A stretch of 4,758 bases of DNA from a virus (Duplodnaviria > Heunggongvirae > Uroviricota > Caudoviricetes), in the IMG/VR virus record IMGVR_UViG_2802429219_000009; one strand, 5' to 3'. Shown here one piece after another: positions 1 through 4,696 of the stretch. Positions within the stretch are counted from its first letter, which is position 1, and each line of letters opens with the position of its first letter. Under the pieces are notes generated by a model. That model made no database searches. It was not told where the DNA came from and saw only the letters and a list, made by a program, of their open reading frames with translations. Made by a program: the position numbers and the translations under genes.

Positions 1-2160
1 GGTTTTCCGCCTTCACATGCCGGGACCATTACCGTCTATGAAGGTTCCAGACCAGGTACGCTGAATGATTTTCTCGGTGCCATGACGGAAGATGATGTCA
101 TGCCGGAGGCATTGCGTCGTTTTGAGGCAATGGTGGAAGAAGCGGCACGCAACGCTGAAGCCGCCTCTCAGAGCGCAGCAGCGGCAAAGAAATCCGAAAC
201 TGCAGCGGCATCATCGAAGAACGCGGCGAAAACCTCAGAAACGAATGCAGCTAACAGCGCACAGGCGGCAGCGTCCTCGCAGACTGCATCGGCAAACTCC
301 GCGACAGCAGCCAAAAAATCAGAAACCAATGCGAAAAACAGTGAGACAGCCGCAAAGACGAGCGAAACCAACGCAAAGTCCAGCCAGACGGCAGCGAAAA
401 CAAGCGAAACGAATGCCAAAGCCAGTGAAACTGCGGCGAAAAGCAGTCAGGATGCAGCAGCCGAAAGCGAGAGTGCTGCAGCTGGTTCTGCGACTTCAGC
501 AGCTGGATCAGCAACTGCTGCGGCTAACAGCCAGAAAGCCGCGAAGACGAGCGAAACTAACGCAAAGTCCAGCCAGACGGCAGCGAAGACCAGCGAAACG
601 AATGCCAAAGCCAGCGAAACTGCGGCGAAAAACAGTCAGGATGCAGCAGCCCAAAGCGAGAGTGCCGCAGCTGGTTCTGCAACAGCGGCAGCTAATAGCC
701 AAAAAGTTGCAAAAACCAGTGAAACTAACGCAAAGACGAGTGAAACAAAAGCAGCAGCCAGCGAGACAGAAGCAACGTCAGCCGCAACAAGAGCAGAGAA
801 TGCAGCCCGGATTGCAGAAGATGCCGCTGATCCTGCTTCTGTCCCTCCGCTTCCTGATATCTGGCTACCCTTGAATGATTCTCTGGAAGCGATAACAGGG
901 TATGCCCCGGGCTATAAAACAATAACCATCGGCAGTGATGAAATAACAATGCCTGTTAATGGCATATGCCAATTTAGCCGGGCTTCATCTGCAACGTATA
1001 TTGATAAGTCCGGGCATATTACCGTGGCAGGGAATAACGTTCCTCGTTTTGAAAAATATGGTTTGCTGATAGAGAATCAGCGAACAAACATGTTCGTAAA
1101 TAGTTTTAATCCTGATGCCTGGAATAAAAGCGGTGGTATATCTGTAACATCATCAACAGATGAATTTGAGTTTAAATATGGACGTTTCACGGTAGGAAGC
1201 GATATAGCAGGAACGACAACAGGGCGAAATATATGCACAGTTGCTGGTAACAAAGGCATAGATGTGACTGGCGATGATCAGTACAGTAAAGGTCCGTATG
1301 TTACCGCGTCGTTCAGGGTAAGAAGTGATCTCAATGTTCGCGCACGTATCCGTTTTGAACGATATAACTCGGAAGGATACACCTTCCTTTGCGACGCCTA
1401 TTTGTCATTACAGACCCATGAACTACAAATTACTGGTGGCAATGCCCAGCTATTAACAGCAAACTTTGAAATCGATCCAGGTAGTGGATGGATATATTTT
1501 CAGGCAACACTGAAATGTCTGCCAGAATGGGGAATGGTTGGTACGCAGCTGCAAATTGCAGCCGACAGAGCTGTGGGGTCTTTTGCAACAGGTGACTGGA
1601 TAGAAGTAACCACCCCGCAATTCGAGTATGGTGCTTGTGCAACTTCCTTCATCATAACGACAACTGAGCCAGCGACTCGTGCATCAGATTTATGTAAATT
1701 TCCGCTGATGAAAAATATGTATACCATGCCTTTTACGTTCATGGTGGAAGTCCATAAAAACTGGTTTATTTCTCATAATGCGGCACCGCGTGTCATTGAT
1801 TCAGAAAATCACCAGTCCGGAGGCCCATTTATTATGGGGTTTGGTTCTTCTGGAACTATTAGTCAGGACGGTTATTCGTATTGCGATATAGGCGGGGCTA
1901 ACCGACGTGTATATGAGTCATGCGGAGTAAGAGATCTTGTTATGGGATTCAGGGTTAAGGCTGACGGCATGACATGCTCATTTGCAAATAAGCATATAAG
2001 CACAGAAACAAAAACAGTATGGAAATATATTCGTGAAGCTGCTGTGATTCGTATCGGGGGACAAACGACGACAGGATTACGACACCTTAATGGTCATATA
2101 AAAAACCTCCGTTTCTGGAACAGAGCATTGTCAGATACGCAGCTTAAGGAATACGTATAA
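1..2160 (+). CDS. stf: Side tail fiber protein, 5'-partial (frame open from base 1; first in-window ATG at 82). Lambda Stf/StfR-like N-terminal region and Ala-rich repetitive shaft, then a different C-terminal tip ending in a LamG/concanavalin-like motif
   Basis: Frame 1 is open from nt 1 with no stop until TAA at 2158-2160. The translation begins GFPPSHAGTITVYEGSRPGTLNDFLGAMTEDD, which matches the conserved region of lambda Stf / E. coli StfR as I recall it. Residues about 30-250 are low-complexity KTSETNAK / AAxSxxAA repeats typical of Stf shafts. The C-terminus ends ...GLRHLNGHIKNLRFWNRALSDTQLKEYV, resembling the terminal strand of LamG-like jelly-roll domains. The alternate-frame and antisense ORFs over 92..949 are composition artifacts. 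Confidence 0.85.
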   Translation, partial: GFPPSHAGTITVYEGSRPGTLNDFLGAMTEDDVMPEALRRFEAMVEEAARNAEAASQSAAAAKKSETAAASSKNAAKTSETNAANSAQAAASSQTASANSATAAKKSETNAKNSETAAKTSETNAKSSQTAAKTSETNAKASETAAKSSQDAAAESESAAAGSATSAAGSATAAANSQKAAKTSETNAKSSQTAAKTSETNAKASETAAKNSQDAAAQSESAAAGSATAAANSQKVAKTSETNAKTSETKAAASETEATSAATRAENAARIAEDAADPASVPPLPDIWLPLNDSLEAITGYAPGYKTITIGSDEITMPVNGICQFSRASSATYIDKSGHITVAGNNVPRFEKYGLLIENQRTNMFVNSFNPDAWNKSGGISVTSSTDEFEFKYGRFTVGSDIAGTTTGRNICTVAGNKGIDVTGDDQYSKGPYVTASFRVRSDLNVRARIRFERYNSEGYTFLCDAYLSLQTHELQITGGNAQLLTANFEIDPGSGWIYFQATLKCLPEWGMVGTQLQIAADRAVGSFATGDWIEVTTPQFEYGACATSFIITTTEPATRASDLCKFPLMKNMYTMPFTFMVEVHKNWFISHNAAPRVIDSENHQSGGPFIMGFGSSGTISQDGYSYCDIGGANRRVYESCGVRDLVMGFRVKADGMTCSFANKHISTETKTVWKYIREAAVIRIGGQTTTGLRHLNGHIKNLRFWNRALSDTQLKEYV
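352..750 (+). repeat. In-frame tandem coding duplication in the fiber shaft: copy A 352..540 (189 bp), copy B 541..708 (168 bp), then a diverged partial third copy from 709. Copy A also carries an internal 21-bp duplication (481..501 and 502..522)
   Basis: Read directly: gcaaagacgagcgaaaccaacgcaaagtccagccagacggcagcg... at 352 recurs as gcgaagacgagcgaaactaacgcaaagtccagccagacggcagcg... at 541 with only scattered substitutions. The protein-level copies are AKTSETNAKSSQTAAKTSETNAKASETAAKSSQDAAAESESAAAGSAT(SAAGSAT)AAANSQKA and AKTSETNAKSSQTAAKTSETNAKASETAAKNSQDAAAQSESAAAGSATAAANSQKV. Confidence 0.8.
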
Positions 2161-2429
2161 TGCGGGATATAACATTACGATTCGATAACAGAGAACAGTT
2201 TAACGCAATTGTATATGACAGTGGCCTGTTCAGTCTTGAAGAAGAAAACGGGGTTCTTGTTGATGTTATTGGCTGCGTTATCGATTACGAGGAGCCAGAA
2301 AACGAAAGATGTACAGGCATTGATCGCGGTGGTTTTTTCGTAAATATGAGGATCGTTGATAGCAGTAAAAATATATCTTCTTTAATGCCTTTCATTACGA
2401 CAGATCAGCATGTAAGGACATGGGCTTAA
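2160..2429 (+). CDS. Hypothetical small acidic protein (89 aa), translationally coupled to the tail fiber gene; function unknown
   Basis: ATG at 2160 overlaps the stf stop (TAATG). AAGGA at 2146-2150 lies 9 nt upstream of the ATG. The ORF is co-directional and tightly packed with its neighbours, with no hydrophobic segment. I recognise no family by eye. Confidence 0.55.
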   Translation: MRDITLRFDNREQFNAIVYDSGLFSLEEENGVLVDVIGCVIDYEEPENERCTGIDRGGFFVNMRIVDSSKNISSLMPFITTDQHVRTWA

Positions 2430-2441
2430 TGGAGTAAGACA

Positions 2442-3125
2442 ATGGTTACAAAAACAGTAATTCCGGGAGACATCACCACGCTAAAGGGAGATATTTCCTC
2501 AATTAACGGAAAAGTATCAACGCTTCAGACTGAGATGACCAGTGCAAAGCAGGATATCAGCTCCAGATACACAAAAACTGAAGTTGATAATAAGCTGAAA
2601 AACAAAGTGGAAGTGAACGATCTGGAAAGTGGTCGTTATGGCGGAGATTTTTATCCACTGACAGGTCGTGAAGCGTTTTATTTATGGAATTTGGCCACGA
2701 CTACAGCGGCGGCAAACCTTTATCTTAATCCTGACCCCGCAATTTCGTCTGTGCTGCGGTCAACATCGTCTATCCGCTATAAACATTCAGTAGAGACAAT
2801 AGATTCAGAGCACGCTGATCTCATTTTCAGGATGCGCCCTGTGTGGTACAGGTCACAATGCGAAAATGACAGGCGTGACTGGGGATTCTACGGATTGATT
2901 GCCGAGGAAGTAGGAGAAATTGCCCCTCAGTTTGTACACTGGCGACCAGCTAACGAAGATGATGCACCGGAAGCTATTTCCAGCAATGGCCTTGTTGCCG
3001 AAGGTGTAATGTACGAACGTCTGGTTGTTCCACTGATTCACCATATCCAGAAGCTGACTGAAAGAGTTGATGAACTTGAGTCAGAATTAAAGTTGTTATC
3101 CGTTTCCCGAAGCGATATCGGATAA
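2442..3125 (+). CDS. Tail fiber-like protein (227 aa) with an N-terminal coiled-coil-like segment and a C-terminal intramolecular chaperone domain (peptidase S74 / endosialidase-chaperone type)
   Basis: GGAG at 2431-2434 lies 7 nt upstream of the ATG at 2442. Residues about 105-220 (nt about 2754-3101) read SSIRYKHSVETIDSEHADLIFRMRPVWYRS...WGFYGLIAEEVGEIAPQFVHW...GLVAEGVMYERLVVPLIHHIQKLTERVDELESELKLL. This follows the S74 chaperone pattern (S-D-x-R-x-K-x-N-I ... P-V-x-Y ... G-F-I-A-Q-E-V ... Y-x-x-L-I-P-L-L-I-x-A-I-x-E-L ... coiled coil) recalled from endosialidase and T5 L-shaped fiber C-termini. Confidence 0.8.
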   Translation: MVTKTVIPGDITTLKGDISSINGKVSTLQTEMTSAKQDISSRYTKTEVDNKLKNKVEVNDLESGRYGGDFYPLTGREAFYLWNLATTTAAANLYLNPDPAISSVLRSTSSIRYKHSVETIDSEHADLIFRMRPVWYRSQCENDRRDWGFYGLIAEEVGEIAPQFVHWRPANEDDAPEAISSNGLVAEGVMYERLVVPLIHHIQKLTERVDELESELKLLSVSRSDIG

Positions 3126-3135
3126 AGGAGGAGTA

Positions 3136-3429
3136 ATGGATATAACACCTTTCCTTCATGCACTTTGTGCTGTGGCTGCGCAGGTACTGATTGGCCTTTT
3201 TACCGGAAACTGGGTTTACGGTGCGATAGCTGGTTGTACGTTCTTCATTGCGCGTGAACACACCCAGGCAGAATATCGCTGGATTGAAATGTTCGGGCAT
3301 GGCAAGCGGATTAACATGCCGTGGTGGGGCGGTTTTGATCCGCGTGTTTGGGATGTGGCAAGCCTGATAGATTTTGCTGTGCCGGTGGTGGCGTGTCTGC
3401 TGGTCTGGCTGTTGGTTAATCGTGGGTGA
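3136..3429 (+). CDS. Small hydrophobic membrane protein (97 aa, 2-3 predicted transmembrane segments), function unknown; candidate lysogenic-conversion or superinfection-exclusion gene
   Basis: A strong RBS (AAGGAGG at about 3125-3131) lies 5-6 nt upstream of the ATG at 3136. There are hydrophobic stretches at residues about 6-38 (FLHALCAVAAQVLIGLFTGNWVYGAIAGCTFFIA) and about 74-94 (VASLIDFAVPVVACLLVWLLV). It is the last gene of the co-directional block. Confidence 0.7.
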   Translation: MDITPFLHALCAVAAQVLIGLFTGNWVYGAIAGCTFFIAREHTQAEYRWIEMFGHGKRINMPWWGGFDPRVWDVASLIDFAVPVVACLLVWLLVNRG

Positions 3430-3439
3430 AAAAAGGTGA

Positions 3440-3559
3440 GCTGTATATGCAACGGAGGAAGAAACCCCGTTGCTGGAAGCCAGGAAAAAGTATCGGGTGT
3501 TGCTGAACCGTGTTGATACGTCAACTGCACAGGATATTGAATGGCCAGCACTGCCGTAG
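3440..3559 (+). pseudogene. tfa: 3' relic of a tail fiber assembly (tfa) gene: a start-less 39-codon frame encoding the conserved Tfa C-terminus
   Basis: Frame 2 is open only from 3440 (preceded by an in-frame TGA at 3437-3439) to TAG at 3557-3559 and encodes [39 protein letters not shown]. The motif [11 protein letters not shown]-x-A-x-DIEWP is the conserved C-terminal signature of Tfa/U-type tail fiber assembly proteins as I recall them. There is no ATG and nothing upstream to complete a full-length tfa. Confidence 0.6.
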
Positions 3560-3656
3560 GGTAAAACATATAAATTCTATAATTAGATGTATCTTTCCAT
3601 TTACGGCAAGGAAGGGGGCTTGGAAGACGTAAAGCATCTCACACCGAGATTATTTT

Positions 3657-4247
3657 TTATATGTCAGGTGTCTGAAGTTTTGCTTTGGCTCTTAAAATGG
3701 TTTGCCGCGAGGTTTTGAATTCCCGGGCAATGGCACTTATACTTACACCTGACTTAATCCGTTCGAATACCACCTGTTTCTGTTCTTCATTTAACACAGG
3801 TGGTCGACCAAAACGTTTCCCTGCGCCCCGGGCTCTTACTATCCCGGAATGAGTGCGTTCAAGTAAAAGGTCTCGTTCAAATTCAGCGACTGCTGAAATT
3901 ACTTGCATCATCATTTTTCCTGTTGGACTGGTCAGGTCAATGCCCCCCAATGCTAAGCAATGCACTCTGATACCTGTTTCGGTCAGTTGTTCCACTGTTT
4001 TCCTGATATCCATTGCATTACAACCAAGGCGATCCAATTTTGTCACAATCAATTGATCACCACATTTCAGGCGAGCAAGCAACCGGTTAAAACCAGGACG
4101 CTCACTGGTTGCTGCTGAGCCGCTAATGTGTTCTTCGATTATTTGCTGAGGTTTGATTTTAAAACCTGCACTTTCGATTTCCCGGCGTTGATTTTCGGTG
4201 GTCTGATCCAGCGTTGATATCCGACAGTAAGCAAAAATTCGAGACAT
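3657..4247 (-). CDS. pinR: Serine recombinase / DNA invertase of the Pin family (PinR/PinQ-like), 196 aa
   Basis: Intact 196-aa ORF on the - strand. The N-terminus [15 protein letters not shown] carries the catalytic-serine motif of resolvase/invertase-type serine recombinases (Ser at position 11), and the C-terminus has an HTH-like segment ([21 protein letters not shown]). From memory this is essentially the E. coli cryptic-prophage PinR/PinQ sequence; I cannot distinguish pinR from pinQ here. Its placement convergent to the stf/tfa genes matches Rac/Qin/e14 organisation. Confidence 0.92.
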
Positions 4248-4340
4248 AGTGAGACTCTATACGAAATTGGTGTTCATATCATAATGCATCTCAGAAAATA
4301 ATTTTGATTATTTTTGTGCATATTTGTATGTGCACGTTCG
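4248..4340 (-). promoter_or_regulatory. Putative pin promoter/leader region in AT-rich DNA (candidate -10 TATGAT on the - strand, + coordinates 4278-4283; no convincing -35 found)
   Basis: This is the non-coding stretch immediately upstream of the pin start codon, and it has a weak RBS (AGAG). Only a -10-like hexamer was identified by eye, so this is a low-confidence positional inference. Confidence 0.3.
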
Positions 4341-4696
4341 AAAATAAACGAATGCGTATGCAACCCCGTAATTTTGGTGAGACCCAAAATCGATTTTGTG
4401 AAAAATGGCTTTAACTCGGTTTGTTTTTCGAGTTCCGGGCGGACTCAAGGAAGAAGAATAGTGTTGCGTGTTATTTTAACCAGATTTCAAGTTGTTTGGT
4501 CGTGGAAAAGTGGAGCAAAATGTTGTTAAAGTGGAAAAATGATAAAAAAGTAAGTTTATTATATTACATTTTACCATTTAAATTTTGGTTGTCTTTAAGA
4601 ACTGATATCGCTGTTTGTAATAATTCTTTGTTGAGCTGGCCCCCTGAAATACCAGACAGTAGATGTATCTTAAAATAAGAGATAGGCTTGGATATA

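Follow-up and report, generated by a model that had tools for sequence, protein, structure and literature searches.

A predicted two-domain head with a LamG-like tip on a lambdoid side tail fibre, and the exchangeable cassette in which it appears to lie

The 4758-bp stretch of phage DNA analysed here (IMG/VR record IMGVR_UViG_2802429219_000009; 'the window' throughout, meaning that whole stretch) opens within stf, the side tail fibre gene, and this report concerns the head that is predicted to end the fibre, together with the genes that accompany it. The stf frame is open from the first base of the window and ends at nt 2160, the full Stf having 785 aa; its last ~430 aa make up two domains, a gene transfer agent (GTA) head-spike-fibre domain followed by a LamG domain. 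The peptides quoted in a first-pass annotation made from the sequence alone, GFRVKADGMTCSFANKHI and AVIRIGGQTTTGLRHLNGHIKNLRFWNRALSDTQLKEYV, are the C-terminus of the + strand open reading frame (ORF) ending at nt 2160. The count of 692 aa given there results from a start at an internal ATG, nt 82, of the 785-aa Stf, and residues of the ORF are numbered below from that ATG. The features of the window are collected in Table 1.

Table 1. Features of the 4758-bp window (positions in nt; ORF aa are counted from the ATG at nt 82)
Feature	Position	Strand	Details
stf, side tail fibre gene	1..2160	+	last 719 codons and stop; a further 66 codons precede the window
Repeat shaft of Stf	330..753	+	Tandem Repeats Finder; 189-bp (63-aa) unit x 2.2, 82–92% matching
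Conserved linker IWLPLNDSL... ahead of head domain 1	859–969	+	
Head domain 1, predicted GTA head-spike-fibre-like beta-sandwich	970..1689	+	ORF aa ~297–536
Head domain 2, predicted divergent Laminin_G_3/concanavalin-A-like jelly roll	1690..2157	+	ORF aa ~537–692
89-aa partner gene	2160..2429	+	PHROG 1361, no Pfam family; overlaps stf at the stop codon
Short fibre-like protein of 227 aa ending in Peptidase_S74, a self-cleaving intramolecular chaperone domain	2442..3125	+	PF13884, 26.7 bits against a cutoff of 22, aa 109–165
97-aa hydrophobic (membrane) protein	3136..3429	+	PHROG 1443; constant right flank of the cassette
tfa remnant, last 36 codons, stop codon ahead	3449..3559	+	translation; PGAP in ECAMP047
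pinQ, serine DNA invertase	3657..4247	-	PF00239 and PF02796 matches; PGAP name

Across nt 1–4632 the window matches E. coli ECAMP047 with 99.9% identity; the counterpart there is a lambdoid prophage at ydfJ (the Qin site) with the gene order L-K-I-J, lom, stf, 89aa, 227aa, 97aa, tfa', pinQ (opposite strand), ydfK. The inducible phage PhiR55_1 (host E. coli C) encodes a 785-aa 'side tail fiber protein' to which the window Stf is 100% identical, and this phage has the same three genes downstream of stf and the same J-lom-stf order. Both the place after J and lom in ECAMP047 and PhiR55_1 and the N-terminal domain are those of a lambda-type Stf: PF08400 (phage_tail_N) matches aa 1–39 of the ATG-82 ORF, with 37.9 bits on the part that lies in the window, and PHROG 1419 ('tail protein') matches Stf with an E of 0. 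The C-terminal 430 aa gave no gp37-like tip match in Pfam, PHROG or NCBIfam, and Pfam scans of the whole ORF and of its C-terminal part found no Peptidase_S74 domain in Stf, that domain sitting in the separate 227-aa ORF. The first-pass annotation had proposed that the usual tip, which depends on the tail fibre assembly protein Tfa, is replaced at this fibre. This agrees with what we find, as nothing in Stf resembles a tip of the lambda/T4 gp37 type and Pfam assigns the ORF as a whole only its N-terminal PF08400.

What had been proposed in place of such a tip was a LamG/concanavalin-like jelly roll, on the strength of a C-terminal motif of the kind that closes LamG-type folds. When the C-terminal 156 or 243 aa of Stf were scanned alone, PF13385 (Laminin_G_3) was the sole Pfam match; on the 156-aa segment it reached an E of 3.2e-4 (21.3 bits) over profile positions 102–150 of 151, which are the closing motif named in that annotation. 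Relatives of the head were gathered in two large protein searches (743 proteins and 2072 representatives, E ≤ 1e-3), from which 61 diverse family members were taken into an alignment, A1. Scanned singly, 40 of the 61 matched PF13385 at E ≤ 0.01 (best E 1.9e-11), and five of the ten members that were inspected individually (P0176, P0152, P0156, P0218 and P0245) exceeded the Pfam gathering score of 27.6 bits. P0176, which aligns end to end with the query, scored 41.4 bits over its last 143 aa and profile positions 8–151, a match that maps by alignment to ORF aa ~540–692 (nt ~1700–2157). The window domain is thereby linked to bona fide Laminin_G_3 members by homology over its whole length, and five of the homologues pass the Pfam threshold that its own C-terminal match does not.

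Structure prediction gave a similar result. AlphaFold2, run on alignment A1 for ORF aa 260–692, returned a confident all-beta model (mean pLDDT 92.1, pTM 0.89), of the beta-sandwich jelly-roll type that characterizes Laminin_G_3. In a Foldseek search of the PDB the top match was a ~500-aa chain of the baseplates of Pseudomonas phages Pa193 and E217, followed by tandem galectins and then by multidomain enzymes, namely the GH43 arabinanase AbnA and trypanosomal sialidases; further matches were C-reactive protein, laminin LG domains, CBM40 modules and the receptor-binding (Hc) domains of botulinum toxin. The neighbours of the model are all concanavalin-A-like. We conclude from sequence and model that the C-terminal motif of Stf is more than a chance resemblance, and that the C-terminus is predicted to be a LamG/concanavalin-like beta-sandwich. 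The range proposed for it in the first-pass annotation, residues ~450–692, was too wide, since residues 297–536 belong to a different domain.

That other domain matches the NCBIfam model NF048003 (GTA_spike_fiber) with 48.3 bits against a cutoff of 36, over aa 329–534 and profile positions 1–181 of 182. With the single sequence, phmmer already matched the head spike fibre Rcc01080 of the Rhodobacter GTA, RcGTA (6tb9_F3, E 6e-4). A profile of the domain-1 family (A6), compared with PDB sequences, matched Rcc01080 with an E of 2.3e-34 over ~228 positions; the same profile matched the C-terminal appendage of gp17, the distal tail protein of Shigella phage Sf11 (1.7e-15), and the baseplate wedge proteins E217 gp45 and Pa193 gp46 (~4e-12). 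On these matches, head domain 1 is judged homologous to Rcc01080. The profiles of domains 1 and 2 proved dissimilar when compared with hhalign, so the head is not a recent tandem duplication, and a recent internal duplication was rejected. Within the head, conservation peaks at RASxATYIxKxG...PRFE..GLLIE.QxTN, at SSFI...TRAxD and at the C-terminal LamG motif, while the bodies of both domains are variable.

In a metagenomic siphophage contig (L087, 5051–6301), a fibre head 30% identical to that of the window is followed by a second two-domain head of 416 aa that has no shaft, and then by a 98-aa homologue of the 89-aa protein. Because the monomer was predicted with confidence, and because stand-alone copies occur in L087 and in RcGTA, we infer that the head at the end of each Stf chain would fold independently, as a monomer.

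The gene whose start codon overlaps the stf stop proved to be a constant companion of the head. We examined 86 related loci (82 of them from IMG/VR, the other four from annotated records of genomes or phages; head identity 41–100%). Locus searches with the single sequence retrieved relatives of 98–100% only, and a 16-sequence alignment was used as well. At 83 loci the fibre gene is followed by an ORF of 50 aa or more, and at all 83 an ORF of 89–93 aa starts within ~3 nt of the fibre stop codon. All 34 distinct sequences of these small ORFs are homologous to the 89-aa protein of the window (phmmer ≤ 5e-10), and they diverge together with the head: heads of 98–100% identity are accompanied by small proteins of 95–100%, and heads of ~50% by small proteins of ~30–37%. 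The family, which carries the conserved motifs M-[KR]-D-[LI]-T-L-[KR]-F, LxD-[VE]-I-G, G-[FY]-[FYH]-V-N-[VLM]-R and a C-terminal R-x-W-A, comprises 387 clusters when searched with a profile of the locus-derived orthologues, every one of them named 'hypothetical'; a single-sequence search with the 89-aa protein found only four fragments. More distant heads can also be followed by a homologue, of 100 aa (and then by an S74 protein) after a 34%-identical head and of 92 aa after one of 38% identity. In a phage whose adaptor is of SU10 type, a head of 31% identity is followed by a 112-aa ORF whose match to the profile of the family is non-significant (E 0.13).

From its position and divergence, the 89-aa gene is the obvious candidate for a dedicated helper of the fibre, and its product may be a functional replacement for Tfa. 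This bears on the earlier proposal that a LamG-type tip would not need a Tfa chaperone. The fibre evidently does without Tfa; that it needs no chaperone at all does not follow, because a gene linked to the head at 83 of 83 loci, and diverging with it, lies next to it. We raise as a tentative possibility that the ~90-aa family is a new class of tail-fibre accessory factor, analogous to Tfa or gp38, which might fold the head, or might remain attached to it and contribute to specificity, and which together with the S74 short fibre could build a branched side fibre of dual specificity.

Comparison of the locus with its relatives points to the units in which it is exchanged. DNA identity with PhiR55_1 spans nt 1–3414, whereas with phage ev207 only nt 1–693 (the shaft, 95% identical) and nt 3124–3505 (the 97-aa gene with a short stretch past it) match, the head of ev207 being 41% identical to that of the window. 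The shaft is thus the constant part of the fibre, common to other fibre alleles, and the 97-aa protein is 86–97% identical across loci whatever the head allele (93% in ev207). The gene between the 89-aa and 97-aa genes occurs as alternative alleles of 227/234 aa or 346 aa, or is absent, and these states combine freely with either head allele; all the alleles tested carry Peptidase_S74 and a common N-terminus, MVTKTVIP. The breakpoints against PhiR55_1 and ev207 fit cassette exchange. On this comparative evidence, the head and the 89-aa gene would form one exchangeable cassette and the S74 short fibre gene a second, independent one, both flanked by constant sequence, the shaft on one side and the 97-aa gene on the other.

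The 227-aa protein of the second cassette has a coiled-coil-like segment at its N-terminus, matches PHROG 3299 at the C-terminal end of the 1385-position profile, and carries S-S-I-R-Y-K at aa ~107–112, which is likely to be the S74 cleavage motif. With its independently shuffling alleles it looks like a second, short receptor-binding fibre, and given this gene the LamG domain may not be the sole receptor-binding element of the locus. The 97-aa protein gave no Pfam or NCBIfam match; a role as membrane 'moron' or as exclusion factor is conceivable.

The head module itself is widespread. It was found in 218 phage records, 195 of which cover at least 80% of the head, and it occurs in the lateral tail fibres of many coliphage groups; the family comprises ~2000 representative clusters overall. 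Of 5426 complete E. coli genomes, 141 (~2.6%) carry the head allele of the window, and related alleles are commoner still. The alleles are highly variable, at 35–52% identity.

Downstream of the two cassettes, no intact tfa adjoins stf. What is present is the terminal 36 codons, labelled by PGAP in ECAMP047 as 'tail fiber assembly protein, incomplete, missing N-terminus' and resembling the conserved C-terminus of lambda Tfa. The remnant sits downstream of the constant 97-aa gene and ahead of pinQ, and ev207 shares its first ~57 nt; in PhiR55_1 no tfa was found in the annotated stretch running from downstream of stf through the integrase gene. At the junction occupied in the window by tfa' and pinQ, ev207 (NC_049949.1; L004, 5457–8281) carries the sitABCD iron/manganese ABC transporter genes, right downstream of the fibre cassette and on the opposite strand. 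Inversion of the cassette by pinQ was considered and rejected: within the window there are no Din-type crossover sites or inverted repeats above chance, so pinQ appears to be orphaned from any invertible fibre segment there. We regard pinQ as what is left of an invertible tail-fibre segment in an ancestor. The first-pass annotation had read the tfa remnant as decay of a gene no longer needed. The remnant is real, but gradual disuse is a less direct account of it than recombination, part of it being common to ev207; the simplest reading of the sequence is that it would be a scar left when an ancestral Stf/Tfa (Pin-invertible) segment was replaced.

These results can be brought together as follows. 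Stf retains at its N-terminus the attachment domain of lambda type, followed by a repeat shaft rich in Ala, and each chain would end in a compact, all-beta head of ~430 aa that takes the place of a gp37-like, Tfa-dependent tip. The head would be a non-enzymatic adhesin of lectin type for a surface glycan, whether O-antigen, capsule, enterobacterial common antigen or lipopolysaccharide core, and would make a reversible first contact before the tail tip, J, binds irreversibly. With the ~90-aa gene, to which it is presumably coupled in translation, it would form an exchangeable host-range cassette next to the S74 short-fibre cassette, and the tfa fragment beside pinQ would be the scar of the replacement of an older Stf/Tfa segment. 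Taken as a whole, with its lectin-type two-domain head, exchangeable cassette and tfa scar, we consider this explanation probable. The analyses above show homology, fold, synteny and mosaic structure; glycan binding, a monomeric head on each chain and the role of the 89-aa protein are inferences. A lectin role is suggested because Rcc01080 binds capsule, because the structural neighbours are of lectin and carbohydrate-binding-module type, and because of the general role of lateral fibres in the coliphage groups that have this module. Rcc01080 is required for adsorption of RcGTA, whose binding to cells is capsule-dependent (PMC7296036, PMC10218006, PMC5026251), and the authors of the BASEL collection assign such lateral fibres to glycan primary receptors (PMC8594841, PMC11990801). 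A carbohydrate receptor, as the first-pass annotation had suggested, is on these analogies plausible.

Several observations weigh against this explanation, some touching the fold and others the ligand. The window Stf's own match to PF13385 falls short of the gathering score, the whole 692-aa ORF gave no LamG match in Pfam (only PF08400), and comparison of the domain-2 profile with PDB sequences was weakly suggestive, at E 0.1–0.4, with the LamG-like S-layer protein 4qvs and C-reactive protein among the matches. LamG/LNS-type domains, for example those of neurexin and the LG domains of laminin, can bind proteins too, and several of the structural neighbours found here are protein-binding or have no known ligand (neurexin/laminin LG, neurotoxin HcN, Pa193 gp46). 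Phages with related heads were isolated on rough K-12 or on E. coli C, so that the fibre would be dispensable on these hosts or would bind a target other than O-antigen. In the literature, including BASEL I and II, DT57C, Pa193 and the Eligo Stf chimeras, we found no description of this head or of its receptor. The baseplate wedge protein Pa193 gp46 is described as having a tail-fibre attachment loop (PMC11456595), which may lie in the matched domain or outside it, and the homologous C-terminal appendage of Sf11 gp17 was left unmodelled and termed 'of unknown function' (PMC12724387).

Two of these observations lend themselves to a different receptor. That the head binds a protein such as an outer-membrane porin (OmpC in the default model of Stf) instead of a glycan is favoured by the protein-binding domains among its LamG/LNS, pentraxin and neurotoxin HcN neighbours, and by the occurrence of related heads in phages isolated on rough K-12 and E. 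coli C hosts, which have no O-antigen. Set against the lectin and carbohydrate-binding-module neighbours and the capsule dependence of the RcGTA homologue, we think a protein receptor unlikely, although it is the alternative that survives best.

We consider it rather improbable that the head serves chiefly for docking or branching and that the true distal receptor binder is the S74 short fibre, perhaps bridged to it by the 89-aa protein. Branched fibres are known from T5-like and G7C-like phages. The third gene, with its constant MVTKTVIP N-terminus, variable body and S74 domain, occurs at most loci and is reassorted without regard to the head, and the order of fibre gene, ~100-aa gene and S74 gene recurs beside the 34%-identical head. 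Homologues of domain 1 are also part of tail proteins to which receptor-binding proteins are anchored, namely Pa193 gp46, with its attachment loop (PMC11456595), and Sf11 Dit gp17, which docks tailspikes, in that case via a separate helical adaptor region (PMC12724387). Nevertheless, ev207 and two further loci (L027 and L028) have no third gene and yet retain both the head and the ~90-aa gene, and the 35–52% identity between head alleles is the variability expected of a part that contacts a receptor.

A concanavalin-like head could in principle be an enzyme (a glucanase, lyase or esterase), acting as a depolymerase in the manner of a tailspike. This we regard as highly improbable: every one of the best structural neighbours is a non-catalytic module, Pfam and NCBIfam gave no match to a glycoside hydrolase or lyase family, and the conserved residues gather in the inter-domain segments, which fits a structural role. 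That the LamG motif is a chance resemblance in a region of another type, as its sub-threshold score over only ~50 aa and the blank scan of the whole protein might suggest, is refuted by the above-threshold, whole-domain matches in end-to-end homologues (40 of 61 members matching), the confident AlphaFold2 model and its exclusively concanavalin-A-like Foldseek neighbours, and its probability is negligible.

The preferred explanation, a lectin-type head on a lambda-type shaft, places the window beside several known systems. Like Rcc01080 (PDB 6TB9 and related; NF048003), the head is a beta-rich adhesin module hung on the virion by an N-terminal anchor. Rcc01080, however, is borne on the capsid, as a single chain of 325 aa on a pentameric base; the sequence match to it stops at residue ~284, leaving no room for a full LamG_3 domain, and only its residues 2–10 have been resolved experimentally. 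In the window, by contrast, the domain-1 module is fused to a lambda-type Stf shaft and is followed by the LamG domain, itself a divergent one by the standard of Laminin_G_3 (PF13385; 21 bits against a threshold of 27.6). With lambda Stf/Tfa and the K-12 Qin and Rac pairs StfQ/TfaQ and StfR/TfaR, the locus shares PF08400, the place after J and lom, and a neighbouring pin gene and tfa 3' end; it differs from them in having neither a gp37-like C-terminus nor an intact tfa, and in having a globular two-domain tip and the ~90-aa gene.

Another resemblance is to lateral fibres of VogelGryff/Bas25, CarlMeissner, JeffSchatz, tunus, the T5-like AKFV33 and the lambdoid ev207, which carry the 433-aa head at 33–52% identity over its full length; in the two of these loci that were examined, VogelGryff and ev207, the ~90-aa gene follows the head. 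The lateral fibres of BASEL and other coliphages differ from that of the window in shaft, virion type and head allele, and we found no published receptor for their head module in the literature. Lectin-like domains on phage fibres are well known. E217 gp45, Pa193 gp46 and Sf11 Dit gp17 are built into a baseplate or tail tip and not into the end of a fibre (PMC11456595, PMC12724387). The head is thus best described as a divergent concanavalin-A-like/LamG member fused to an Rcc01080-type domain, and not as a Tfa-dependent tip of the lambda/T4 type. It belongs to a common, already catalogued phage module, the domain-1 part of which the NCBI pipeline already names; what is modestly new is the invariant, co-diverging ~90-aa partner family and the two-cassette organization of the locus.

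Which E. coli surface types come within reach of a temperate phage, or of an engineered lambda-based delivery particle, is set by side and lateral fibres. If the head is indeed a self-contained unit of lectin type, forming with the ~90-aa gene a cassette with conserved bounds, it would offer a concrete unit for swapping host range, and it would explain the tfa stubs present in many prophages.

The shaft that carries the head contains, within its longer unit, sub-repeats of 21/42 bp that encode Ala/Ser/Thr/Glu/Lys-rich 'KTSETNAK' repeats, and a change in the copy number of the shaft repeat would alter the length of the fibre. In ECAMP047 (NZ_CP196265.1; L001, 5803–8160), PGAP splits stf into a 5' 'pseudogene' and a 403-aa 'phage head spike fiber domain-containing protein'. 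A disrupted gene was rejected, as the 785-aa frame is intact and has no internal stop; the split is an artefact of annotation, for which the repeat region is the probable cause.

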